This document shows, piece by piece, positions 1,598 through 59,998 of a DNA stretch of 60,216 bases. The position numbers and the translations under genes were made by a program. Each line of letters opens with the position of its first letter. Within the stretch, counting starts at the first letter, position 1. The notes below the pieces were generated by a model, which was given only the letters and a program-made list of their open reading frames with translations, ran no database searches and had not been told where the DNA came from. Source of the stretch: Nitrososphaerota archaeon (GTDB lineage: Archaea > Thermoproteota > Nitrososphaeria_A > Caldarchaeales > Caldarchaeaceae); contig JAWAEB010000001.1 of NCBI GenBank assembly GCA_038891515.1, forward strand, positions 1 to 60,216. Reading direction: 5' to 3'.

Positions 1598-2592
1598 CCA
1601 CCTATCGTATACATAGGCCTAACGTGCTGGGCCATCAAGCTGTTTTTCAGCATGAACTCGACGCCGGGAGACTTGAGCTTAAAGACATCCCTGATGAAAT
1701 TCTCCAGCATCTCATCAGAAGCACCACCCCTCAAGAGTGGCTTGATATCATACTCATCCCTGCTGAAGAGGCATGGAACAATCTTTCCATCGGCGGTCAT
1801 CCGAATTCTGTCGCAGTCACCGCAGAATGGCTGGGTCATTGAGGTAATGATGTTGATTTCGCCTGGGCTCCCATCCTTGAACCTGTAGGATGACGCAGTG
1901 CTACCTGGCTCTCGAGGCATCTTTTCCAGCCGATAAGCACGCCCAATCCTCTCAATTATCTCGTCTCCGCTCACGACCAGATCTGGCCTCCACATCCTCC
2001 GACCGTCGAACGGCATATACTCTATGAATCGGACGACCAGTCCGCTCTCCCTTGCCAGACCCACGAAGTCTAATATCTCGTCATCATTGCACCCGCGTGT
2101 CACCACACAGTTTATTTTTACAGGGTTGAGTCCAGCCTCCACCGAGCGCCTTATCCCCTCCAAGACACGGCTGAACACATCCTTCCTGCCAACTATTGCT
2201 TCAAACCTCTCGGGCTTGAGACTGTGGAGGCTTATGGTGACGCTATGCAGACCAGCTTCCCTGAGCGGTTTGGCCATCTCCCCCATCAGGTAGCCGTTGC
2301 TGGTGAGGGAGATGCTCCCAACACCCTCCACACATCTCAGTAGGTTGACCAGCTTGGGCAGATCCCTACGCATCAGTGGCTCTCCACCCGTCAGCCTTAC
2401 TGTATCCACACCCATCGCCGCCAAAACCGAGGCGACCCTAACAATCTCCTCGAATGTGAGTATCTCACTATGCGGAAGCCATACAGGCTGGCTGGGCATG
2501 CAGAAACTGCATCTAAAGTTGCACCTATCGGTCACGGAGAGCCGCAGCTTCCGAGCTATCCTTCCAAGCCCGTCGGCTAGGGGCCGTCTCAT
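1594..2592 (-). CDS. moaA: GTP 3',8-cyclase MoaA (radical SAM, molybdenum cofactor biosynthesis)
   Basis: CNFRCSFC radical-SAM cluster motif, LTGGEPLMR, and C-terminal FCGDCDRIRMTADGKIVPCLF second-cluster motif. Its 3' end overlaps the ctaB 3' end by 4 nt (convergent). Confidence 0.9.
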   Translation of the reverse strand: MRRPLADGLGRIARKLRLSVTDRCNFRCSFCMPSQPVWLPHSEILTFEEIVRVASVLAAMGVDTVRLTGGEPLMRRDLPKLVNLLRCVEGVGSISLTSNGYLMGEMAKPLREAGLHSVTISLHSLKPERFEAIVGRKDVFSRVLEGIRRSVEAGLNPVKINCVVTRGCNDDEILDFVGLARESGLVVRFIEYMPFDGRRMWRPDLVVSGDEIIERIGRAYRLEKMPREPGSTASSYRFKDGSPGEINIITSMTQPFCGDCDRIRMTADGKIVPCLFSRDEYDIKPLLRGGASDEMLENFIRDVFKLKSPGVEFMLKNSLMAQHVRPMYTIGG

Positions 2593-2617
2593 CTTCCATG
2601 GAGTCCCTTTAGCCGGT

Positions 2618-2727
2618 TAAAAAATGTGATGGGGTTCTTTGGGGATCATCGCACCCAAGCCCCTCGCGGGTTCATTGGAGCCTCGTCGGTCTGGTCCCCG
2701 TTCGTGTGAGCCCACCCCATTCACAGA
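2618..2727 (-). ncRNA. candidate structured RNA (independent sRNA or cis-regulatory leader of moaA)
   Basis: Minus-strand reading gives four nested helices:
- P1: UGUGAAUGGGG (2725-2715) with CCCCAUCACA (2634-2625), 10 bp with one bulged A.
- P2: GGGGA (2699-2695) with UCCCC (2645-2641).
- P3: UCCAA (2679-2675) with UUGGG (2658-2654).
- P4: CCC-GCGA-GGG hairpin (2670-2661) with a GNRA loop.
P1 is followed directly by U6 (2624-2619). An AT palindrome lies upstream at 2741-2750. There is no convincing ORF. Confidence 0.35.
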
Positions 2728-2740
2728 GGAAGGGAGGATC

Positions 2741-2750
2741 AATTAATTAA
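2741..2750 (-). promoter_or_regulatory. AT-rich palindromic box aattaattaa, candidate TATA element for the minus-strand RNA element / moaA leader
   Basis: Perfect 10-nt AT palindrome about 20-25 nt upstream (minus sense) of the 5' arm of the closing stem at 2725. Confidence 0.3.
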
Positions 2751-2761
2751 CGTCTACGGCA

Positions 2762-2806
2762 GACTATACATAGACTATAGCCCTCTTAACCTAAGCCACG
2801 ACTATA
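2762..2806. repeat. three direct copies of GACTATA
   Basis: gactata occurs at 2762-2768, 2773-2779 and 2800-2806, inside an AT-rich, ORF-poor spacer (2741-3369). Confidence 0.6.
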
Positions 2807-3293
2807 CACCATCTATGCTTAGCTTCAGAAGCTATCTTCACTTCTTCAGAGACCTTCCTAGCCAAATCATGTAGGGTAGACTTGCTTATAGTCTCCAGAG
2901 CAATGCTTAGAACCAACCCTCCTACAGATTCCATGAAACATATACTCCTATACAGCTAAAACCCCGACCTCGCAGCTTTTTATTATGGTCAAAACAACTT
3001 GAGACGAGGGCCACAACATCCATACAACAAAGATAACTCCCGGCCTTTAAATATACCACTTATCCGGACACTACCGTGGTTGCACGTGAAATAGCTCATA
3101 TATTCATAAAGAGACATACTGGGGAAAGGTCGAATTAATGTACCCAAGCTATGAAAAAGTAAAAAATCCTTGATGAATATAGTGATATTATCTCCAACAG
3201 GTGGGTAGTATCCACAACAGATCAAAAATTCTAACAACTGTATTTCCTATTTCGCGTATAAGAACTATGTATATTCGTTCTTCGCTGTGTATT

Positions 3294-3318
3294 CCCTATG
3301 TATTGGATATACATAGGG
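3294..3318. repeat. perfect 10-bp inverted repeat (hairpin), core of a longer imperfect palindrome
   Basis: ccctatgtat (3294-3303), tggat, atacataggg (3309-3318). Outer arms attcgttct (3273-3281) and agaacgaat (3336-3344) are also complementary. Lies about 50 nt downstream of the cytochrome b stop. Confidence 0.7.
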
Positions 3319-3369
3319 AGGAATAAAATGTGAATAGAACGAATAGACCGCATGTTGGGCTTATGGGCT

Positions 3370-4716
3370 CTACTTTATCTGGCCCATGGCATGCCTGTAG
3401 ATATGGGCCGCGAGCCCGAAGATGGCTAGGGCCACGCCTAGGTTGAATAGGGATAGGTTCTTCAAACCTTCGATATACTGCTGGAAAGCCAGCAGTCCAA
3501 AAATACCTATAACCGCCAGAAGACCCACTATGAGCCTCACAGACCACTCATACGGTAGCTGGATCGTTATCGGTCTAGGCTTGGGTGCCGGCCTAGCTGG
3601 CTCAGACCTTGGAGGTGCTATGAACTTATAGCTTATCAAGAATGAGATGGCTATGAGAAAGAGGAGGGCTGGATAAAATACCAGAGGCTCCACATACACC
3701 GCTGTAAAGGCGTCAACCCGGGGGACCGTGTAGAAACCCCAGACGGTGGTCACTATGATCAGCACAAGCCCGGATACGCCAGCTGCTGTGAAGAAGGGTC
3801 TCTCCCGCCAGCTCAGCTTCTTAGACCTGTCCACAAAGGGTACGAGAAGGAAGAAGAGGATGAAGAGGAGGGGTAGGAGGGCGCCGGAAGTGAACCTCTC
3901 CAGTCCCGTTCTGATGAAGGCGTAGATGCCGGTGAGGTACCATTCAGGAACCTCAACTATGGCCTGTGTGGGGTTGTATTTTGTGCCCAGCTCAACCGGG
4001 AAGAGACCAGCTCCGATGAATAGGGCGCCGAGGATACCTGCCACCACCGGTGGGTCGAAGACTAGGTTGCGGGGAAAGTGGACTAGAGCCAGAAGGAGCA
4101 TCACCATAGGCAGTATGAATACATGGAGTGCGTAGAATCTGACTATTAGGTCGTATAGGCCTCCGCCCAGTAGTATGGGTGCTATCTGTGGGCCTAATAT
4201 GGGCGCCGAGTTGGTGAGACCCACCGCTATGTTGACAGCCAGCATGGCCCTCTGGTTGAGTATAAGGTCATATCCCGTGAAGGCTTCCAAGACCGTGACC
4301 GTCCCTAGTATGACACCTGTGACCCATAATATCTCATTCTTCACCTTATAGCGGCCGCTGAAGTATTGGTAAAACATGTGGGCTATGGCGAGCAGGACCA
4401 TCATGTTGGATGCGTGGTAGTGTATGTTGCGTAGGAAGAATCCGAACTCTATCTCATCCTGTATCTCCTTGACACTCTCATAGGCTGTCTGCACGTCAGG
4501 CCTATAGTAGAACATCAGAAGGGCTCCAGTTATCCCAAGTACAGCGAAGACCACGGCTGTTAGGGTGCCTAGATAGCCGAATGGACTGACGAACAGCCTT
4601 GGAACCTGGAATCTAAAGGAGAGGAGGGGTGTCCTCTCAAGCCTATCCACCAGCCACTTGATAAATTCGTCAAAAACCCTCCCCAGGGGACCGGGCTCCT
4701 CAGCCTTCTGGGTCAC
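3370..4716 (-). CDS. cytochrome b-like membrane protein (bc-complex / SoxC-SoxN type)
   Basis: 448 aa, polytopic. FLRNIHYHASNMMVLLAIAHMF matches the haem-ligand helix of the cytochrome b N-terminal domain. A second His-bearing helix is FYALHVFILP. Confidence 0.75.
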   Translation of the reverse strand: MTQKAEEPGPLGRVFDEFIKWLVDRLERTPLLSFRFQVPRLFVSPFGYLGTLTAVVFAVLGITGALLMFYYRPDVQTAYESVKEIQDEIEFGFFLRNIHYHASNMMVLLAIAHMFYQYFSGRYKVKNEILWVTGVILGTVTVLEAFTGYDLILNQRAMLAVNIAVGLTNSAPILGPQIAPILLGGGLYDLIVRFYALHVFILPMVMLLLALVHFPRNLVFDPPVVAGILGALFIGAGLFPVELGTKYNPTQAIVEVPEWYLTGIYAFIRTGLERFTSGALLPLLFILFFLLVPFVDRSKKLSWRERPFFTAAGVSGLVLIIVTTVWGFYTVPRVDAFTAVYVEPLVFYPALLFLIAISFLISYKFIAPPRSEPARPAPKPRPITIQLPYEWSVRLIVGLLAVIGIFGLLAFQQYIEGLKNLSLFNLGVALAIFGLAAHIYRHAMGQIK

Positions 4717-10753: not shown

Positions 10754-11152
10754 CTCTTCCCAGACTTGAAATCGAAAGCTTTTAAAAAGGCTGGTCTGCT
10801 CAGTGGTGGTGAAAGACAAATGCTTGCTATTGCCAGAGCTTTAATATTGGATCCAGACCTGCTTCTGCTTGATGAGCCTACAGCTAACCTTTCGCCTATA
10901 GCTACCATGAACCTAATAGACAGCATAAGACCGATAAATGTGGACGGTGTCAGCGTGCTGCTGGTGGAACAGAACGTTAAGAAGGCTCTTTCAGTAGCTT
11001 CACGAGTATACATATTAGTTTCAGGCCGCATACTCCATCATGCACCGGCAGAACAAGTAGTGATGGGCGACATCAGCAAACTTTTCTCCCTGATTTCAGT
11101 AAATGATGATGTTATCTATCGTCAGTCAGCTCCGATGACACAAGCTATTTAG
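10754..11152 (+). pseudogene. 5'-truncated remnant of a LivF-type ABC ATPase
   Basis: [48 protein letters not shown]...VLLVEQN covers only the signature, Walker B and H-loop half. No Walker A is found in any frame upstream, and no partner transporter genes are adjacent. Confidence 0.7.
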
Positions 11153-11230
11153 CCGAGACACTCAATGAACAAACACTAAATTGAAGTCATCAGGTGTTAA
11201 AAGCGTTGTAAATGACATAGTTATGGAGAG

Positions 11231-11828
11231 GTGGGATCTGACCACCGGGCAGCAGTGATAGTGATTGACATGCAGAGAGTTTTTCTTGAGCCTATGTCAC
11301 CTCTCGAAATAGCACCAACCTGAACAAAGGAAGTCGTTAACTCAATTCGCTCCTTACTAGAAATTGCTAGCACAGTGAAACTGCCTGTTTTTTATACGAT
11401 GATGGTTTTCAATCGAGACCTGTCAGACGCTGGTAGATGGATGGATAAGTATCCGGAGTTGAAAAATGACAGATGGTTCACTCCTTGTAGAGATAATAAC
11501 TGCGTTAAAGCCGCTCCCCGATGAAAGGATCATTAAAAAACCTAAGCCGAGCGATTTCTTCGGAACGGATCTACATGTATTTCTGAGAACATATAACATT
11601 GACACCTTGATAATTACGGGTTGTGTCACAAGTGGATGCGTGAGAGCTACAATAGTGGATGGTTTCTCGTATGACTACAGGTGTATAGTACCCAAAGAGT
11701 GTGTGGTGGACAGGAATGACGAACGCCACCTATCCAATCTCAGAGATATTGCTATGAAGTATGCTGATGTAACAGGATTGGATGTCGTCCTTGACTATAT
11801 TCGCACCAAATATACTGGTAGCCTATAA
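11231..11828 (+). pseudogene. isochorismatase-family hydrolase, disrupted (in-frame TGA plus frameshift)
   Basis: Frame 2 reads GSDHRAAVIVIDMQRVFLEPMSPLEIAPT, then TGA (11321-11323), then KEVVNSIRSLLEIASTVKLPVFYTMMVF...YPELKN. Homology then continues in another frame from about 11466 (DGSLLVEIITALKPLPDERIIKKPKPSDFFGTDL...LIITGCVTSGCVRATIVDG). Confidence 0.75.
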
Positions 11829-12139
11829 ATCACAGACACAACGATCAACCCTAGCTTTATACCTTATTAGTCCGCTAGAAGTCCTAGATTGAAGCATTTT
11901 GATGACCTAAACGACCTTGGTGGCGCCTAGTAAATACATCTGACCCAGCAACCTATGAAAAGACTGTTCGAGTCAAGGCAAACCAGCAATTAACATACCC
12001 ACTTCATCATACAAATCTCAGCTATGGACAAGTTAGCGAGTGGGTTTATCTTATTCAGCTTATCGTCACCTAATGACTGTGATAACAACTGGAATTCTAA
12101 TATAGTATTATGCTGCTATATACTGGGAGGGGGTGAATC

Positions 12140-26284: not shown

Positions 26285-27257
26285 GTATCAATACCCTTGG
26301 GTCGTCCACTGCGTTTTGGCTGATGGCTCCGGCGTCACGAATTATGCGGATATTCAGTGCAACATTATCAAGGTTCCAAGCATCAGACCGCAGGTATAAT
26401 GGAACTATTCGCTCCTTATAGACGGCAATGGCTTCAGGACTGTCCGGCAACCTTGTCAATGAGGCGTATCTCTTCATTGCCTCGTCTGGATTGTTATGAA
26501 TCCAATCTACTGCCTCATTCCATATCTTTACAATTTTTCTAACAGCTTCTGGATACCTATCAAGAAACGCAGATTGAACCCCTATCCCCGTGAATACAAG
26601 GTCGTAGCCAGTCTTCTGCCTCCAGACTTGGTTCACATCTGCAAGCTCACGCGCTTGCCCTGTCACAAGTAGCAACGATGTAAATGGGTCAAATATAGAA
26701 ATGAAGTCTGCATCACCCTTAGCCATGATCTCAGGCAGCACAGGTGGCGGACCAGTGAGAACCTTACTAGCAGACTTCTCCAGGTTCGGGAGACCAGCGT
26801 ATTCGAGTACTGGTGAGACATCGTCAGGCTGGTCTAGTATTGCGTAAACTTTACCTCTAAGATCCTGTAGGCTCGTAAAAGGTGAGTCCGGTTTCACGAG
26901 TACCGACTGAAGGCCACGTAGTGAAGCACCTACCAACACGATATTACGTCCAGCGCCTCTGAATTCTGCTGCAGTATGCACGCTGAGAGGAAGTTCTATA
27001 TCGAGTTGCCCAACTCCGAACGCAGTATTCATATCGTCCGGATTCGGAAACTCAACCCATTCTATGTTCAGTCCCTCACGTTCAGCCAGCTTGTTTTCCT
27101 TTATGTAGGCCACGGGTAAACCAGAGATAAACGGCTCGTAACCCACTCGGACTTTGTCAGGCAGAGGTGGTGGAAGAGTCAAGAAGTATACGGTCACAGC
27201 CAAGGCGATTATAACCACAGCCCCAATAACGGCTGCGATCAGTCCCCTTCTTCGCAT
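26268..27257 (-). CDS. ABC substrate-binding protein, NMT1/THI5-SsuA-like, membrane-anchored
   Basis: 329 aa with an N-terminal TM anchor (LIAAVIGAVVIIALAVTVYFL). Overall resembles sulfonate/nitrate/taurine/HMP-type binding proteins. Confidence 0.7.
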   Translation of the reverse strand: MRRRGLIAAVIGAVVIIALAVTVYFLTLPPPLPDKVRVGYEPFISGLPVAYIKENKLAEREGLNIEWVEFPNPDDMNTAFGVGQLDIELPLSVHTAAEFRGAGRNIVLVGASLRGLQSVLVKPDSPFTSLQDLRGKVYAILDQPDDVSPVLEYAGLPNLEKSASKVLTGPPPVLPEIMAKGDADFISIFDPFTSLLLVTGQARELADVNQVWRQKTGYDLVFTGIGVQSAFLDRYPEAVRKIVKIWNEAVDWIHNNPDEAMKRYASLTRLPDSPEAIAVYKERIVPLYLRSDAWNLDNVALNIRIIRDAGAISQNAVDDPRVLIREVRP

Positions 27258-56236: not shown

Positions 56237-57019
56237 ATGGTGAAGTTATACATCATAGATGGCGGAACATTCACACAGGACCAGTCGATAGCCACTTTCG
56301 CCATAGGCGCCGGTCAGCCGATGACATCACAGGTATACTCGGTCTATGTGGATCATCCGGAGGCCAAGATTGTTATAGAGACTGGTATGGACCCGGAGAT
56401 ATGGCCTCCACTATTGAGGCAGATACTCGTGCCGAGCCAGAAGCCCGAGCAGAGACTGGACAACTCCCTCAAAAGACTAGGCGTGAAGCCTGAGGACATC
56501 GACATAGTCATCAACACCCATCTCCACGCAGACCACTGCAGCTTCAACAGACTCTTCAAAAATGCGACGTGGCTTATCCAGCGTGAGGAGCTGAGGCAGG
56601 CGTATGTTCCGGAGGTCCATGAGATAACTTACTTCCGGGGATGTTTTGACGTAGGCCTTGAGACCCAGCTTCTAGATGGAGACTATGAGGTGGTGAAGGG
56701 GGTTAGCATACTTGACACGAGAGGCCACACCGCAGGGCATCAGTCGATAGCCATAGAGACCGAGAAGTCAGGCGTCTTCCTCATAACGGGGGATGCAAGC
56801 ATGACGCGGGAGAACTTCTACGGCTCTGAGAGGACAAGCCCTCATGGGTGGCCATGCGCGCCCCTCATAGATGCTAGGCAGTACATGAGGTCTCTTGAGA
56901 AGATGAAGAGGTTTGTAAGGGAGACCGAGGCCAAGACACTGAAGACATGTAACATAGTGTTTGGCCACGACCATGCTGAATTCCAAAAACTGAAGTTAGC
57001 ACCTCTATACTATGAGTAA
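56237..57019 (+). CDS. MBL-fold metallo-hydrolase (lactonase-like)
   Basis: 260 aa. VINTHLHADHCS (HxHxDH), GHTAGHQS and FGHD. Confidence 0.75.
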   Translation: MVKLYIIDGGTFTQDQSIATFAIGAGQPMTSQVYSVYVDHPEAKIVIETGMDPEIWPPLLRQILVPSQKPEQRLDNSLKRLGVKPEDIDIVINTHLHADHCSFNRLFKNATWLIQREELRQAYVPEVHEITYFRGCFDVGLETQLLDGDYEVVKGVSILDTRGHTAGHQSIAIETEKSGVFLITGDASMTRENFYGSERTSPHGWPCAPLIDARQYMRSLEKMKRFVRETEAKTLKTCNIVFGHDHAEFQKLKLAPLYYE

Positions 57020-57709
57020 CAGCTCGGAGAGAGACCCTATCACGAGGTCGGCGGATACATCTCCGCTGTAGCCTGACCTGCCACGCCTAGCAAGGAGAAC
57101 TGCGGTCATCCCAGCAGCCCTAGCTCCAGCCACATCATTCCTAGGATGGTCGCCCACCATGGCACAGTCACGGGGGCTAACATTCAGCATCTCGGCCGCC
57201 TTGAGAAACGGTTGGAGACTCGGTTTCACCTCACCTACATCATCACCTGCCACAACAACCACCTCGAAAAATCTGGTGAGATCATATATCTCAAGCCTAC
57301 GCCTCTTCAGCCCGGGCTTCCCATCGGTATTGGTCACCATCCCCAGCCGGTGAGTCCGGACAAGCTTTGAGAGGGTGGGCTCCACATCGGGGAAGACGGC
57401 GGCAGTTGAATAGTGGCGCCAGTACAGCTCACTCCACCGGCTGGGGCTGTTTTCGGGCATGTCCGCTACTCCGAGCCTCTTTAACACATGGTGCCAGTAC
57501 TGGTCTCTGTCGAATCTGAGCTGCTCCTCCATCTCCCTCTCTACCTGACTGATTATCTCGGCCACATTAGCCGGCTGGACTTCAAGGTTACAATCTGCCA
57601 CAATAGCCTCAGCCGTCTTGAGGTGGGCGATCCCCACCGCCGAAGCCGAGTCTACTAGTGTGTTATCAAAGTCGAAGAGGAGGGCCTTGACACCTGCAAG
57701 TGGCTTCAT
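57005..57709 (-). CDS. HAD-superfamily hydrolase
   Basis: 234 aa. LLFDFDNTLVDS (DxDxT motif I) and MVGDHPRNDVAGARAAG (motif IV). The 3' end overlaps the MBL gene by 15 nt. Confidence 0.75.
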   Translation of the reverse strand: MKPLAGVKALLFDFDNTLVDSASAVGIAHLKTAEAIVADCNLEVQPANVAEIISQVEREMEEQLRFDRDQYWHHVLKRLGVADMPENSPSRWSELYWRHYSTAAVFPDVEPTLSKLVRTHRLGMVTNTDGKPGLKRRRLEIYDLTRFFEVVVVAGDDVGEVKPSLQPFLKAAEMLNVSPRDCAMVGDHPRNDVAGARAAGMTAVLLARRGRSGYSGDVSADLVIGSLSELLLIV

Positions 57710-57774: not shown

Positions 57775-58383
57775 TCAGCCCATAAGGCCGAAGACGGAGT
57801 AGATGAGTGAGACAACGGCCAGCACCGCTATCGAAAGGATGGCGACCGCTAAAGTCTCCCTCCTGCCAGCTGTGGAATACCTGTAAGACTCCAGGGCTGG
57901 ATATGTCTTCCTCAGTATCCCAGCTAGGGCTAGGCTGATTATGCCGCCGAACGTTACTTGGAGGCTGTTAACAGCGACCAGCTCGGCGAGAGCCACCTCG
58001 AAGCCGATTACAGCCCACTCCACGGCAAAATATCCAGCAAGCATCACAGCAGCCCCACACACGACGCCAGCCAACTTATAGCCCGGCCCCCTTCCACGGC
58101 CAATGAGACCAGTCACATACCCCTCCATACCTTTGATGAAGAGTGTGAACGGTGCGAAGAACCCGAAGCCCAGAAGAATATCAGCCAAGGCCGAGCCTAT
58201 ACCACCTGCCAAAAACCCAATTCTAGCCCCGAAGACCAGACCTGAAAACATAACCAGTGCATCGCCCACGTTGAAGAAGCCGCGGGTCGGTGCGAAGGGC
58301 ACCACTATCAACATAGTAGTGGCTGCAGTGGCAGCAGCCATGACAGCGATGACGGCCGCATCCCTGCTAGTGAGAAGTGCCAT
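57775..58383 (-). CDS. ECF-transporter S-component-like vitamin/precursor uptake membrane protein (solitary)
   Basis: From ATG 58383: MALLTSRDAAVIAVMAAATAA...VPFAPTRGFFNVGDALVMFSGLVFGARIGFLAGGIGSALADILLGFGFFAPFTLFIKGMEGYVTGL matches the ECF S-component pattern (ThiW/HmpT/PdxU/RibU-like). The track ORF extends to 58572, but that extension overlaps the divergent gene and is non-hydrophobic. Confidence 0.55.
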   Translation of the reverse strand: MALLTSRDAAVIAVMAAATAATTMLIVVPFAPTRGFFNVGDALVMFSGLVFGARIGFLAGGIGSALADILLGFGFFAPFTLFIKGMEGYVTGLIGRGRGPGYKLAGVVCGAAVMLAGYFAVEWAVIGFEVALAELVAVNSLQVTFGGIISLALAGILRKTYPALESYRYSTAGRRETLAVAILSIAVLAVVSLIYSVFGLMG

Positions 58384-58404
58384 GGTGGTTGCGGTTATTG
58401 GAAG

Positions 58405-58413
58405 AATATATAA
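58405..58413. promoter_or_regulatory. central A/T box shared by the divergent ECF-S and ThrC-like/PadR genes
   Basis: The box aatatataa lies in a 52-bp intergenic region. The layout is ATATAAGC (58408-58415), c, GTAGcCTAC (58417-58425), ATATAAGC (58426-58433). The first ATATAAGC copy is about 24 nt from the plus ATG 58436 and about 28 nt from the minus ATG 58383. Confidence 0.4.
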
Positions 58414-58435
58414 GCCGTAGCCTACATATAAGCTC

Positions 58436-59839
58436 ATGCCATTCCACTGCCTTGGATGCGGAAGAGCATTTGACGAGCTGGAGAACCAGACAGCATGTGG
58501 TGGCTGCGGAGGTGTGCTGGTACACAGACCTGAGGCCTTTAGAGCTGGCGAGTTGGCGGATTCATCAGCCACCGGTGTCTGGAGATATTGGCGGCTCTTA
58601 CCCCATGTGCCGCCTCACTGGAGGATTAGCTTAGGAGAGGGTGGGACCTTTCTCCAGAGGGCTGACAGGCTTGGGGTTGGCCTGGGGTTTAGCCGAGTCT
58701 TTCTTAAGAATGAGGCCACCAACCCATCGGGTTCCTTCATCGACAGGGGCGTGGCTGTAGAGGTGTCCCACGCCACTTCGCTAGGGTTCAGAAAACTCTC
58801 ATGCTTCAGCCGTGGGAATCTTGGGGTCTCAGTATCGGCTTATGCAGCGAAGGTGGGTCTGGAGACACGTGTGTATGTGCCTCCCGCCATGGAGAGGGGC
58901 AAGCTCTACCAGCTACTCGCCTATGATGCACAAGTACACTTCACAGCAAGAATGGCTGGTGCGCTGGGCCGGAGGCTCCATAGGGAAGGGTTCTACCACA
59001 TCACATCCACAAGCCCATACTTCTTAGCCGGACTGAAGACCCTAGCTTATGAGCTGGTTGCAGAGATAAACCCAGACTACGTGGTCTTCCCAGTGGGAGA
59101 AGGGGGAAATATCACCATGTTCTGGCAGGGGTTGGGAGACCTTAGGAGGAGCGGTGCTACCGATGCTAGACCACGCCTCGTCGCGGTCCAGTCAGAAGGC
59201 TGCATGCCCATAGTCCAAGCATACAACAGTGGAAGAAGCATGCCAGAATGGAGGTCTGCCATTAAAACAATCTTCACCGACATCGCTGTCCCCAACCCAT
59301 CCCTCGGACCCTACGTCATAAAATCCCTCAGAGAGTCACATGGCCTAGCCATCTCAGTAAGCGACATAGAGATACTCCAAGCCACCAAAGACCTGGCTAG
59401 GTGGGAGGGCATCTTGGCCGAGCCTGCTGCAGCGTCGACGATTGCTGCCCTCAGGAAGATGGCTGAGGACGGTCGGCTGGGCGGGGATGAGAATGTGGTA
59501 TGCGTGGTTACAGGCTCTGGACTTAAGGAGCCATATATAGAGAGACCATCAGGAAGAGCTGAGAGGAGCATAGCCGCAAGGGCATTAACAGCCTCAAGGG
59601 TAGGTGTCACCAAGTCCCACATCCTCCAACTTCTCGCCGAGAGGCCCAGCTATGGATACGCAATAAGGAGAGACCTCGCCAGAAGATTCGGCATACAAGT
59701 ATCCACCACCTCAGTCTATCAACACCTAGCCGAGCTGGCTTACGCAGGACTTGTAACGGCCAGATCAACCACATACGCTAACAGAAGAAGAACACTATAC
59801 AGCCTAACACCTACAGGCAGACAGAAAACCACACACTGA
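58436..59839 (+). CDS. threonine-synthase-like (fold-type II PLP) protein lacking the Schiff-base lysine, fused to a C-terminal PadR-type wHTH
   Basis: 467 aa in three parts:
- Zn ribbon: CLGCG...CGGCGG.
- ThrC-like core: FLKNEATNPSGSFIDRG (Ile102, ATC 58739-58741, where NPTGSFKDRG has Lys), VFPVGEGGNITMFWQG and VVTGSGLKEP.
- C-terminal PadR-like region (about 59618-59836): ILQLLAERPSYGYAIRRDLARRFGIQVSTTSVYQHLAELAYAGLVTA...RRRTLYSLTPTGRQ. Confidence 0.8.
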   Translation: MPFHCLGCGRAFDELENQTACGGCGGVLVHRPEAFRAGELADSSATGVWRYWRLLPHVPPHWRISLGEGGTFLQRADRLGVGLGFSRVFLKNEATNPSGSFIDRGVAVEVSHATSLGFRKLSCFSRGNLGVSVSAYAAKVGLETRVYVPPAMERGKLYQLLAYDAQVHFTARMAGALGRRLHREGFYHITSTSPYFLAGLKTLAYELVAEINPDYVVFPVGEGGNITMFWQGLGDLRRSGATDARPRLVAVQSEGCMPIVQAYNSGRSMPEWRSAIKTIFTDIAVPNPSLGPYVIKSLRESHGLAISVSDIEILQATKDLARWEGILAEPAAASTIAALRKMAEDGRLGGDENVVCVVTGSGLKEPYIERPSGRAERSIAARALTASRVGVTKSHILQLLAERPSYGYAIRRDLARRFGIQVSTTSVYQHLAELAYAGLVTARSTTYANRRRTLYSLTPTGRQKTTH

Positions 59840-59897: not shown

Positions 59898-59998
59898 GCC
59901 CTGGTAGCTCAGCAGGTGGAGCGTCTAATACTGCAGAAGTATTAGCTCCAAGCCGCCTCGTAAGCGGCAGGTCGAGGGTTCAAAGCCCTCCCAGGGCT
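59898..59998 (+). tRNA. tRNA-Thr (anticodon CGU) interrupted by a 28-nt intron between positions 26 and 27; CCA not encoded
   Basis: Manual cloverleaf:
- Acceptor stem: GCCCTGG / CCAGGGC, followed by discriminator T.
- U8 A9.
- D arm: GCTC-AGCAGGTG-GAGC, then G26.
- Intron: 59924-59951.
- Anticodon arm: GCCGC-CTCGTAA-GCGGC, with anticodon CGT at 59959-59961.
- Variable loop: AGGTC.
- T arm: GAGGG-TTCAAAG-CCCTC. Confidence 0.85.
59924..59951 (+). other. tRNA intron with bulge-helix-bulge splicing motif
   Basis: - Central helix H: GGAG (59918-59921) pairs with CTCC (59946-59949).
- The 3-nt bulges CGT (59922-59924) and AAG (59950-59952) each lie 3' of their H strand.
- Inner helix: CTAATAC (59925-59931) with GTATTAG (59939-59945), loop TGCAGAA.
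- Cleavage after the second bulge nucleotide on each strand gives exactly ...GAGC-G | GCCGC...
- The outer helix is weak (relaxed HBh' form). Confidence 0.7.

Follow-up and report, generated by a model that had tools for sequence, protein, structure and literature searches.

How Bacteria keep vitamin B6 in balance, by way of PdxR, has been described in detail, whereas to our knowledge no regulator of B6 homeostasis is known in Archaea. Archaeal regulators of vitamin synthesis and uptake genes exist nonetheless, namely, ThiR, a ThiN domain joined to a helix-turn-helix, and RbkR, a riboflavin kinase joined to a winged helix-turn-helix (wHTH). PdxR belongs to the MocR/GntR proteins, in which the fold of a pyridoxal-phosphate (PLP) enzyme serves as a sensor and is fused to a winged helix. 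In Bacteria, the PdxR regulons comprise pdxST, pdxK and pdxU; Archaea have no MocR regulators (PMC5320631). The transport of vitamin B6 is a recognised knowledge gap, the only known ECF-type B6 transporters being the PF07155/COG4720 proteins PdxU and PdxU2/HmpT (PMC9997740).

Here we analysed a stretch of 60,216 nucleotides from a Nitrososphaerota archaeon (the window), in which a gene for a threonine synthase (ThrC)-like protein with a C-terminal winged helix lies next to a PF07155 gene. Like PdxR, the product has the fold of a PLP enzyme, as a putative sensor, fused to a winged helix. PdxR is linked to pdxST and to PF07155 pdxU genes, often divergent from the regulator (PMC5320631), a likeness that here consists of adjacency only. 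The parts themselves differ: PdxR has an N-terminal GntR winged helix and a fold-type I aminotransferase domain that keeps its PLP lysine, whereas the window protein has an N-terminal zinc ribbon, a fold-type II ThrC domain without that lysine and a C-terminal PadR winged helix, and neither module is homologous to its PdxR counterpart. In addition, PdxR often activates pdxST, while the position of the candidate site described below suggests repression. With ThiR and RbkR the protein shares the fusion of a vitamin-metabolism domain to a DNA-binding domain in Archaea, but these two concern other vitamins and use unrelated domains, and the sensor proposed here comes from a cofactor-using enzyme rather than from the vitamin's own pathway.

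A threonine synthase-like domain is joined to a PadR-type winged helix

The gene and the parts of its product are as follows.

58436..59839, plus strand: regulator gene (ThrC-like plus PadR), proposed to be B6-responsive (ORF list, Pfam, AlphaFold2)
58448..58507, plus strand: N-terminal zinc ribbon, Cys5/Cys8/Cys21/Cys24 (family conservation)
58625..59515, plus strand: ThrC-like fold-type II PLP domain, residues 64-360 (Pfam PALP, PDB, Foldseek)
59519..59599, plus strand: flexible linker, residues 362-388 (pLDDT below 50)
59621..59830, plus strand: PadR-type winged helix-turn-helix, residues 396-465 (Pfam PadR, PDB)

The open reading frame encodes 467 amino acids, starts with ATG and stops with the TGA at 59837-59839. 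An earlier note, made from the sequence alone, had read it as a zinc ribbon followed by a ThrC-like PLP domain and a PadR wHTH; the ThrC-like and PadR motifs that it quoted were all found in the translation, and Pfam together with the conserved cysteines bore out the order. PALP matched residues 64-360 (E 1.1e-63) and PadR (PF03551) matched residues 396-465 (54.7 bits versus a cutoff of 27, E 1e-14), while Pfam gave no match to a GntR domain in the 467-aa protein. The best PDB sequence match was ThrC (2zsj at E 4e-52), the top Foldseek matches in the PDB were threonine synthases, and the winged helix matched 2esh (TM0937, E 2.5e-5) and RosR (6qfd, E 6e-4). An AlphaFold2 prediction agreed with this picture, giving a ThrC fold and a winged helix (mean pLDDT 88.7), both with high confidence, connected by a low-confidence tether at residues 362-388. 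The reading frame is unbroken through this linker in all homologues. The linker is of low complexity.

The four cysteines of the zinc ribbon are 99 to 100% conserved among homologues, and the ribbon is also present in unfused archaeal ThrC proteins, indicating that it was inherited from the enzyme ancestor. The modelled winged helix consists of three helices and a beta-hairpin wing, after which comes a short helix (459-466). Its recognition helix reads S426-V-Y428-Q429-H430-L; Y408, Y428 and H430 are invariant, and Y428, Q429 and H430 are invariant or almost so across phyla. PadR regulators such as TM0937 (2esh) and the haloarchaeal RosR (6qfd) share this type of winged helix, but in canonical PadR proteins, which bind phenolics or drugs, it is N-terminal and precedes a dimerisation helix or domain. 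In the window protein the winged helix sits instead at the extreme C terminus, and the 350-aa PLP fold presumably takes the sensor and dimerisation role.

The Schiff-base lysine and the substrate-phosphate residues are replaced

The following codons stand at the altered positions.

58739..58741, plus strand: codon ATC (Ile102), Schiff-base lysine column (gap-free alignment with three solved ThrC)
58820..58822, plus strand: Leu129, replacing ThrC Thr88 (family comparison)
59021..59023, plus strand: Phe196, replacing ThrC Arg160 (family comparison)
59279..59281, plus strand: Asp282, acidic, specific to the lysine-less hydrophobic subgroup (family comparison)

HMMER aligned NPSGSF-I-DRG of the query without a gap to NPTGSF-K-DRG of three solved ThrC structures (2zsj, 2d1f and 1uim), thus placing Ile102 in the column of the Schiff-base lysine (Lys61 of Thermus thermophilus ThrC), as the earlier note had claimed. 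The ATC codon is two substitutions away from AAA or AAG. In the 119 closest full-length homologues the column was occupied by Ile (81), Val (20), Leu (12), Met (3), Ala (1) or Thr (1) and never by Lys, and the motif around it was 92 to 100% conserved, so that neither chance nor sequencing error accounts for the replacement. A catalytic lysine at a shifted position, which the earlier note had named as evidence against its reading, was looked for in the family alignment and does not exist: the conserved lysines of the PLP domain (K91, K156, K201 and K364) are all present in ThrC as well.

Over about 320 residues, the protein is 29 to 35% identical to the ThrC proteins of Aquifex aeolicus (2zsj) and T. 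thermophilus (1uim), with which it shares the fold, Asn87, the TGxGLK threonine and the loop for the PLP phosphate. Retention of the phosphate-binding loop, also proposed before, was confirmed family-wide, where G221-x-G223-G224, Asn128 and Thr359 are kept. Conservation reaches 99 to 100% at N96-P-S/T-G-S-F, D103-R104-G, G127-N128, G221-x-G223-G224, E329-P330 and T359-G-x-G-L-K. In contrast to ThrC, however, the protein has Lys61 replaced by Ile, Thr88 by Leu, Asn154 by Thr (Thr190 in the window protein) and Arg160 by Phe, carries the added linker and winged helix, and is encoded without linkage to threonine pathway genes. In ThrC, the phosphate group of the substrate, O-phosphohomoserine (OPHS), is held by Thr88, Asn154 and Arg160 (T. 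thermophilus numbering), and these OPHS-phosphate residues are replaced in every fused member. The Leu129 column is 93% Leu in the family versus Thr in ThrC, and the Phe196 column contains Arg in none of 111 fused proteins versus 50 of 55 unfused ones. Position 282 is Asp in 95% of close homologues. It is Asp or Glu in 53 of 54 members of group A, that is, of the fused subgroup with a hydrophobic residue in the lysine column, while the Arg and Lys subgroups have either Ala or Gly there and ThrC has Ala. By homology, Ile102, Leu129, Phe196 and Asp282 would line the PLP site.

The fusion defines a large archaeal family

The fused family comprises thousands of archaeal proteins from at least ten archaeal lineages, among them Asgard archaea, Bathyarchaeia, ammonia-oxidising Thaumarchaeota and Thermoplasmata, and nearly all are named "threonine synthase." We surveyed the loss of the lysine against the presence of the wHTH and found the two to be correlated, since truly unfused relatives kept Lys in 54 of 54 cases versus 12 of 111 distinct fused homologues, the others having Arg (45), Ile, Leu, Val or Met (52), Ala (1) or Thr (1). 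Loss of the lysine is not obligatory, however: one subgroup keeps it and another has Arg. The feature common to all fused members is the loss of the OPHS-binding residues. Shorter matches of 230 to 300 aa were considered as other winged-helix architectures but rejected, as they proved to be fragments of this fusion with a truncated N terminus.

NF004170 (PRK05638), an NCBIfam equivalog model of 442 positions named "threonine synthase," spans residues 4-463 of the window protein and so covers ThrC plus winged helix. All fusion subgroups match it over the full length, the best being the subgroup with Arg in place of Lys (407 bits; cutoff, 421), and its product name very probably denotes an enzyme activity that these fused proteins lack. 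The earlier note had proposed a candidate new class of regulator. Its reading of the protein as a ThrC-derived regulator is supported, but the architecture is not rare and a model spanning its full length already exists. Full-text literature searches yielded no description of a ThrC-PadR fusion family and no characterised regulator with such an architecture, in agreement with that note; a paper on archaeal fusion proteins names a cysH-thrC fusion only. Further homology searches, for cultured carriers of the fusion, returned metagenome-assembled genomes only.

The regulator gene is linked to a PF07155 transporter gene and, elsewhere, to pdxS and pdxT

The nearest gene upstream is transcribed in the opposite direction.

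57775..58383, minus strand: ECF S-component of the PdxU/PdxU2(HmpT) family, 202 aa, proposed target (Pfam PF07155, PDB 4hzu_S)

Its product matched PF07155 (E 1.2e-28, 100.6 bits versus a cutoff of 26.7) and chain S of 4hzu (HmpT/PdxU2; E 7.6e-17). In 82 of 111 distinct fused loci, the window included, the regulator gene has a PF07155 S-component gene no more than 700 bp away, in three arrangements (divergent, same-strand downstream and convergent), whereas unfused ThrC loci have effectively no such neighbour (0 of 54) and no link to pdxS/pdxT. In five other loci (L016, L026, L030, L098 and L107), the regulator gene adjoins pdxS/pdxT, encoding PLP synthase, an assignment that Pfam matches to SOR_SNZ and SNO confirmed in L016, L026 and L030. 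The remaining neighbour genes vary between loci. These linkages suggest that the signal is vitamin B6 and that the regulated genes are those of B6 uptake and synthesis.

In the pocket of the S-component, Tyr120, Asn140 and Gln143 of HmpT are kept and Glu41 is replaced by Asp or Glu (Asp in the window), but His84 is replaced by Lys, Gln87 by Glu and Ser136 by Glu in all 72 of 72 regulator-linked archaeal orthologues. As the pocket is thus only partly HmpT-like, the substrate could be another vitamer or another compound. No ECF A/T module (EcfA/A'/T) was found in the 60-kb window, nor were pdxST or pdxK.

A candidate operator lies between the two divergent genes

The two start codons enclose a short intergenic region with two boxes.

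58384..58435, no strand assigned: divergent promoter region of the regulator and transporter genes, 52 bp (two start codons)
58406..58414, plus strand: Box 1, ATATATAAG (motif comparison)
58421..58432, no strand assigned: Box 2, CCTACATATAAG, candidate operator (family palindrome CCTAT-NN-ATAGG)

Box 1 is probably the regulator gene's TATA box; from its position about 26 nt upstream of the ATG, the mRNA would be leaderless. In addition, Box 1 may be a degenerate half-site of the operator. At 14 loci, spread over different phyla (Aigarchaeota-like, Thor-, Loki- and Bathyarchaeia and Nitrososphaerota), a composite motif, ATATATAA-N7-CYTAYATATMRG, stands directly upstream of the regulator gene; the window has a single copy of it.

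Box 2 is an imperfect CCTAT-NN-ATAGG palindrome with two mismatches; its end is 3 nt short of the regulator start codon, and the start codon of the transporter gene is about 44 nt downstream of it. The perfect form, CCTAT[AG][TC]ATAGG, occurs 15 times in 1.21 Mb of loci, and 15 of 15 sites fall in promoter regions of group A. Upstream of the Arg and Lys subgroups the palindrome was not found, and a k-mer survey there returned TATA-like words only. In the window, the search for further copies gave only one chance-level match, at 27098, with one mismatch. In most lineages the palindrome is TATA-like (CCTATATATAGG), and it could chiefly represent a strong promoter element that the loci share; the version CCTATGCATAGG, which is not TATA-like, is found in the gap between pdxS and the regulator gene in L016 and, in L107, upstream of pdxS at a distance of about 60 nt.

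The product is proposed to be a B6-responsive repressor

We consider it likely that the window protein is an autoregulated repressor responsive to vitamin B6 or PLP and not a threonine synthase; its binding to ligand and to DNA, the identity of that ligand, repression with B6 as corepressor and dimerisation through the ThrC domain are what we infer. That a ThrC-derived pseudoenzyme could be the ligand-sensing domain of a wHTH regulator, the central idea of the earlier note, is supported by the loss of the lysine, the loss of the OPHS residues and the retained PLP site. With Ile in place of Lys and the residues that hold OPHS gone, the domain would form no Schiff base, while the pocket kept for the pyridoxal-phosphate ring and phosphate would take up PLP, or a different phosphorylated B6 vitamer, as a reversible ligand and not as a cofactor. 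Because ThrC proteins are dimers, the protein is probably dimeric through its ThrC-like domain, and the dimer would offer the CCTAT-NN-ATAGG site a pair of C-terminal PadR winged helices, each tethered by a flexible linker of about 25 residues. The site at 58421-58432 would overlap the start of the regulator gene as well as the promoter/TATA region of the divergent gene at 57775-58383. With ample B6, the liganded protein would sit on the site and repress both genes by shutting out TBP/TFB or RNA polymerase; under B6 shortage, the site would be vacated and both genes released. In other archaeal lineages the regulator would be wired to pdxS-pdxT, which makes the family look like a non-homologous archaeal counterpart of bacterial PdxR. 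Taking all parts together, we lean slightly towards an independently evolved archaeal B6 master regulator made of a disabled threonine synthase and a PadR domain, in which the lysine disappeared on three or more occasions once the fusion existed, giving way to Ile/Val/Leu, Arg or Ala, and the cofactor became a freely exchanging ligand that gauges the pool of free PLP.

In GabR and other MocR regulators, an external aldimine is formed between the effector and the bound PLP. By analogy, PLP or PMP could be a permanent prosthetic group of the window protein, the signal being an amino acid or amine (threonine, homoserine or another) and B6 supply being tuned to the demand of PLP enzymes. The 12 of 111 fused proteins that keep the Schiff-base lysine are compatible with this; where the lysine is missing, an incoming amine could still be captured as an aldimine by the free aldehyde of bound PLP, and Asp/Glu 282, found only in the lysine-less hydrophobic subgroup, could pair with an amino group. 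We regard such a sensor as unlikely, however, since the linked genes are those of B6 uptake and PLP synthase and not of amino acid pathways, the former substrate site is now hydrophobic (Leu129, Phe196 and Ile102), and direct sensing of a vitamer is simpler and fits the mode of PdxR.

Bifunctional enzyme-regulators exist, archaeal RbkR and bacterial BirA being examples, and a protein with so strongly ThrC-like a fold might combine DNA binding with lysine-independent PLP chemistry, either threonine synthase activity or a related reaction. Some family members even score above the curated thrC cutoffs, L010 for example (219 bits with TIGR00260, cutoff 167, and 338 bits with NF006050, cutoff 303). 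The window protein, in contrast, passes none of the curated threonine synthase cutoffs (TIGR00260, 159.9 versus 167.1 bits; NF006050, 239.3 versus 303; NF004170, 261.3 versus 421). Throughout its subgroup the Schiff-base lysine and the three substrate-phosphate ligands have given way to hydrophobic or neutral residues, and archaea of the same phyla possess an unfused ThrC with the zinc ribbon and all catalytic residues intact, making a dual role very improbable.

A sensor of hydroxymethylpyrimidine (HMP) or HMP-P, the thiamine precursor, controlling an HMP transporter, has a still slimmer chance. HMP-P and PLP share a methyl-substituted ring and a CH2-O-phosphate group, HMP resembles PMP/PLP, and the archaeal S-component differs from HmpT at the three pocket positions given above. 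The Lactobacillus brevis PF07155 protein was first named HmpT, as a predicted hydroxymethylpyrimidine carrier, from its thiamine-related genomic context, but the compound recovered from HmpT was pyridoxamine and not HMP (PMC4860826). Moreover, pdxS/pdxT adjoin the regulator gene in five loci, with the palindrome upstream of pdxS, while in a motif search of L001-L088 ThiC was absent and the two Thi4-like matches both belonged to unfused ThrC loci. As it is pdxST and not ThiC that accompanies the regulator, we rejected thiamine/HMP as the main reading in favor of vitamin B6.

Finally, the chance that the gene is a decaying pseudogene, or a frameshift or assembly chimera of a thrC pseudogene and a separate PadR gene, against which the earlier note had warned, is negligible: the in-frame fusion recurs at equal length, with a conserved junction (G390-x-T-K393), in several hundred independent sequences and contigs from many studies, ruling out a frameshift or chimeric assembly, and both domains are under strong purifying selection.

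Consequences for archaeal vitamin metabolism and annotation

If the B6-repressor reading is true, Archaea would gain a B6 regulator, an operator motif (CCTAT-NN-ATAGG) for regulon reconstruction and a candidate first archaeal B6 transporter. The family would be a case of convergent evolution, in which a PLP-enzyme fold and a winged helix placed over pdxST/pdxU were built from non-homologous parts, and a natural experiment in which a cofactor site became a ligand sensor through removal of the catalytic lysine. Thousands of "threonine synthase" annotations in Asgard archaea, Bathyarchaeia, Thaumarchaeota, Thermoplasmata and other archaea would be wrong. As the misannotation would be systematic, and some members pass curated thrC thresholds, the apparent capacity for threonine synthesis would be inflated in metabolic reconstructions of uncultured archaea.

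Other genes near the regulator

Downstream of the S-component gene lies a further gene on the same strand.

57005..57709, minus strand: HAD-family phosphatase gene (Pfam Hydrolase/HAD_2)

It starts 65 bp downstream of the S-component gene and may belong to the same operon; its match to NCBIfam TIGR02253 is below the cutoff, and its synteny is found only in a close relative (L003). A neighbouring MBL-fold lactonase was considered as a 4-pyridoxolactonase but rejected, as its 159 bits fall short of the cutoff of 325 and about equal its AiiA score, giving no evidence of a role in B6 metabolism. ARAGORN reported no tRNA in the window, a negative that is unreliable given an Rfam match, which places an intron-containing tRNA directly downstream of the regulator gene.

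Domain structure and conserved residues

The earlier note had described a gene joining a threonine synthase (ThrC)-like PLP domain to a PadR winged helix, and the reading frame was confirmed with all of its quoted motifs:

58436-59839, + strand: the proposed regulator, 467 aa, ATG to TGA

A Pfam scan detected both domains in it, namely, PALP at residues 64 to 360 (E 1.1e-63) and PadR at residues 396 to 465 (54.7 bits; cutoff, 27). The PadR domain is thus recognized above its cutoff, yet the winged helix occupies an atypical C-terminal position. An AlphaFold2 model with 89 homologues as input (mean pLDDT 88.7) predicted a ThrC fold joined by a disordered linker (362-388) to a winged helix, the latter having three helices and a beta-hairpin wing, and the best PDB matches found by Foldseek were threonine synthases. 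HMMER alignment to 2zsj, 2d1f and 1uim set NPSGSF-I-DRG opposite NPTGSF-K-DRG with no gaps around the cofactor motif, in line with the claim that isoleucine replaces the PLP lysine, and codon 102 (58739-58741) reads ATC, as had been stated.

A homology search with the regulator returned 390 proteins, the nearest being metagenome sequences of 65 to 66% identity; an Aigarchaeota protein (Ca. Pelearchaeum) was 53% identical. All of the best 120 of these 390 matches carried PALP and PadR, and where a name was given it was usually "threonine synthase." They came from Aigarchaeota, Nitrososphaerota, Thor-, Hod-, Loki- and Odinarchaeia, Bathyarchaeia and Thermoplasmata; the archaeal survey that the earlier note had proposed thus found the same fusion in many lineages, from Asgard archaea to Thermoplasmata.

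We aligned the best 120 of the 390 homologues with three canonical ThrC sequences. The lysine column held Ile in 81, Val in 20, Leu in 12, Met in 3 and Ala and Thr in 1 each, and never Lys, while its neighbors N96, P97, G99, F101, D103, R104 and G105 were 98 to 100% conserved. The foreseen objection that the catalytic lysine might sit at a shifted position did not hold, the PLP domain having no new conserved Lys in this alignment. We then considered Thr88, Asn154 and Arg160 of Thermus thermophilus ThrC (numbering verified against the 1uim alignment), which we take to be the ligands of the substrate phosphate. Across the family, Thr88 is replaced by Leu (Leu129, 93% Leu), Asn154 by Thr, Ser or Met, and Arg160 by Phe, Leu or Ile (Phe196). 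The PLP-binding loops are retained, as had been proposed from the sequence, with Gly127-Asn128 and the phosphate loop Gly221-x-Gly223-Gly224 kept, and so are Glu329-Pro330 and Thr359-Gly-x-Gly-Leu-Lys.

Lysine loss among fused and unfused proteins

A wider sample, drawn from GTDB species genomes, JGI metagenomes and loci fetched around homologues, comprised 111 distinct fused and 55 scored unfused proteins.

Residues at three ThrC columns in fused and unfused proteins
Column; fused (111); scored unfused (55)
Lys; R45, I22, L17, V10, M3, A1, T1, K12; K54, R1
Thr88; Thr in 1/111; Thr in 49/55
Arg160; Arg in 0/111; Arg in 50/55

The sole "unfused" protein with Arg (L131) clusters within the fused Arg group and is thus probably a mis-scored fused member; with it set aside, Lys is present in 54 of 54 truly unfused proteins against 12 of 111 fused ones, and the suspected correlation between lysine loss and the winged helix was therefore borne out. 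The 4-Cys ribbon also occurs in unfused archaeal ThrC proteins and is thus ancestral.

In a rough neighbor-joining tree of the PLP domain, all fused proteins but one, from Hadarchaeota (L026, Lys replaced by Ala), fell into a single cluster, in which the members with a hydrophobic residue at the Lys column, including the window protein, formed a contiguous block and the Lys and Arg forms were intermixed within a sister block. This clustering suggests, as far as so crude a tree allows, a single fusion, after which the lysine was lost at least three times. Position 282 (Asp282, 59279-59281) is Asp or Glu in 53 of 54 hydrophobic-group members and Ala or Gly in ThrC and in the Arg and Lys subgroups, the acidic residue thus covarying with hydrophobic replacement of the lysine. 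The Arg-for-Lys subgroup (L018, L027-L029, L056, L108-L166; Bathyarchaeia and others) is very large: a search with L018 gave 2431 matches at E<=1e-20, the best 120 of which were all at least 76% identical.

The closest nonfused relatives of the DNA-binding domain were tandem double-PadR proteins of about 260 to 290 aa (11012-11869 in the Lokiarchaeota locus L007, plus two further search matches); in L007 one such gene lies 3.5 kb from the regulator.

Genes adjoining the regulator

Divergent from the regulator, and starting 52 bp upstream of it, lies an ECF transporter gene:

57775-58383, - strand: S-component, 202 aa, PF07155 (E 1.2e-28)

Its only solved relative is 4hzu chain S, the HmpT/PdxU2 of Lactobacillus brevis (E 7.6e-17). 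The ORF list had started this gene at GTG 58572 (57775-58572, - strand), overlapping the regulator start; we rejected that start in favor of ATG 58383 (MALLTSRD...), which matches 202-aa orthologues in two fetched loci (L001 and L003). Relatives with 66, 65, 53 and about 40% identity, which come from Aigarchaeota, Nitrososphaerota, Hodarchaeota and Lokiarchaeota, keep the divergent pair amid otherwise different neighbors.

Of the 111 fused loci, 82 have an orthologous S-component gene no more than 700 bp away. Three arrangements occur: the gene is upstream and divergent in 33 loci (hydrophobic group), follows directly on the same strand in 36 Arg-group and 7 Lys-group loci, and is convergent in 6. 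Sixteen fused loci lacking an adjacent S-component had a flank of less than 700 bp on one side. Beside unfused ThrC genes, the S-component was found in effectively 0 of 54 loci. The pocket signature is invariant in 72 regulator-linked S-components: relative to HmpT, E41 is D or E, H84 is replaced by K, Q87 by E and S136 by E, and Y120 and Q143 are kept, as is N140 in all Arg- and Lys-group members and, a one-column alignment shift aside, in most of the hydrophobic group. These 72 proteins make up a single orthologous group, and their substrate may not be exactly that of HmpT; one may speculate that the pocket Lys at the His84 position forms an aldimine with pyridoxal. PdxU, PdxU2/HmpT (COG4720, PF07155) and P5PA are the only characterized prokaryotic B6 transporters, and PdxR and PdxR2 are named as the few known B6 regulators (PMC9997740); pyridoxamine was recovered from HmpT, for which the conserved pocket residues have been given (PMC4860826).

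In five fused loci lacking an adjacent S-component, the regulator instead adjoins the PLP synthase operon. pdxS-pdxT is divergent from it in L016 (Thermoplasmata) and L030 (Nitrososphaerales), precedes it in L026 (order pdxS-pdxT-regulator) and follows it in L098 and L107 (order regulator-pdxS-pdxT); Pfam matches to SOR_SNZ (E 1e-96 to 1e-103) and SNO (1e-38 to 1e-52) confirmed L016, L030 and L026. Since this gene pair is single-copy and the genomes have a few thousand genes, we estimate, rather than compute, that five independent adjacencies in about 95 informative loci are far above chance.

In one Nitrososphaerota locus (L021), a candidate alternative B6 transporter, an APC-family permease (AA_permease_2; 2362-3900, - strand), stands divergent from a hydrophobic-group regulator in place of an S-component, with the composite promoter motif between the two genes.

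A putative operator

In the window, ...GAATATATAAGCCGTAGCCTACATATAAGCTC directly precedes the regulator ATG, at the end of the 52-bp intergenic gap. About 30 hydrophobic-group loci, from Asgard archaea to Thermoproteota, have a composite, ATATATAAG-N5/6-(G/A)CCTA(T/C)ATATAGG(C), immediately ahead of the regulator. Among them are loci that lack an S-component, and in L030 the composite is in the gap between pdxS and the regulator; it occurs once in the 60-kb window. The 1.21 Mb of fetched loci contain 15 perfect matches to CCTAT[AG][TC]ATAGG, every one of them within a hydrophobic-group regulator promoter; the window palindrome, with half-sites CCTAC and ATAAG, departs from the ideal at two positions. 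This palindrome was not found in the Arg and Lys subgroups.

The AT-core palindrome could be merely a strong TATA box. However, versions with a GC core, which are not TATA-like, exist: CCTATGCATAGG occurs between pdxS and the regulator in L016 and, in L107, some 60 nt ahead of pdxS, while pdxS of L098 is preceded by CTTATGCATAGG. For this reason, we read the 12-bp palindrome as a putative operator. The regulator would then have its own TATA box in box 1, some 26 nt ahead of its ATG, which implies that its mRNA is leaderless. Box 2 (58421-58432), which overlaps the regulator start, is some 44 nt ahead of the transporter ATG, at the place expected for the transporter TATA/BRE; this geometry suggests repression of both divergent genes.

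Proposed function and alternatives

We consider it likely that the regulator acts as a B6-responsive, autoregulated repressor, and are less sure of the exact ligand. PLP or another phosphorylated vitamer would be held noncovalently in the retained cofactor pocket, the protein would dimerize via its ThrC-like domain, and the tethered winged helices would contact the palindrome.

Control of B6 genes by a PLP-fold sensor joined to a winged helix is already familiar from Bacteria. PdxR regulons comprise pdxST, pdxK and pdxU, and Archaea lack the MocR subfamily (PMC5320631); the archaeal fusion thus has the genomic associations of PdxR but neither of its domains. It lacks the defining features of MocR/PdxR (GntR domain and fold-type I); its mode of working would be PdxR-like, but it does not belong to that family. 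In the literature searched, we found no description of the fused architecture, its archaeal spread, the Lys-less sensing domain or the operator.

A GabR-like sensor, in which PLP would be a fixed cofactor and an amine the signal, is an unlikely alternative to the B6-responsive repressor. The fused proteins that retain the lysine (L017, L020, L035, L037, L043, L102, L112, L117, L123, L143, L160 and L166) may bind PLP covalently; in them, Thr88 is replaced by His or Gln and Arg160 by Ser or Thr, and they still adjoin an S-component gene.

Much less probable is a residual bifunctional enzyme. NF004170 (NCBIfam, PRK05638, "threonine synthase") aligns to residues 4 to 463 of the window protein, this model thus also covering the winged helix; the protein lacks what defines a threonine synthase, namely, the Lys and the substrate ligands, and misses all curated cutoffs. 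Some Lys-less fused proteins exceed the curated equivalog cutoffs, as does that of Thorarchaeota locus L010 (3977-5467; TIGR00260, 219 bits against 167; NF006050, 338 bits against 303), and standard pipelines will therefore keep labeling such regulators as functional threonine synthases.

Marginally weaker still is the case for an HMP or thiamine sensor: in a motif search of loci L001-L088, ThiC was absent and the only two Thi4-like matches were both at unfused ThrC loci. An artefact can practically be discounted, the fusion and the lysine replacement being neither an error nor rare.

Surroundings in the window

The window also encodes AglB/STT3, PAC2, MetRS, a Mo-hydroxylase, a Liv-type ABC transporter, an amidohydrolase and an F420-type luciferase-like oxidoreductase, a content consistent with an archaeon. 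No canonical thrC, which the earlier note had proposed to seek elsewhere in the genome, and no pdxST or ECF energizing module lies within these 60 kb. Three further features flank the divergent pair:

57005-57709, - strand: HAD-family phosphatase, 65 bp downstream of the S-component, same strand
56237-57019, + strand: MBL-fold lactonase, convergent; best NCBIfam match 4-pyridoxolactonase, 159 bits against a cutoff of 325
59898-59998, + strand: tRNA gene of about 101 nt, 60 nt past the regulator stop; Rfam RF00005, 39.5 bits

Synteny of the phosphatase and lactonase was seen only in the 65%-identity relative (L003), and a role for them in B6 salvage is possible but unsupported. The length of the Rfam tRNA match implies one or more introns; ARAGORN reported no tRNA across the window.
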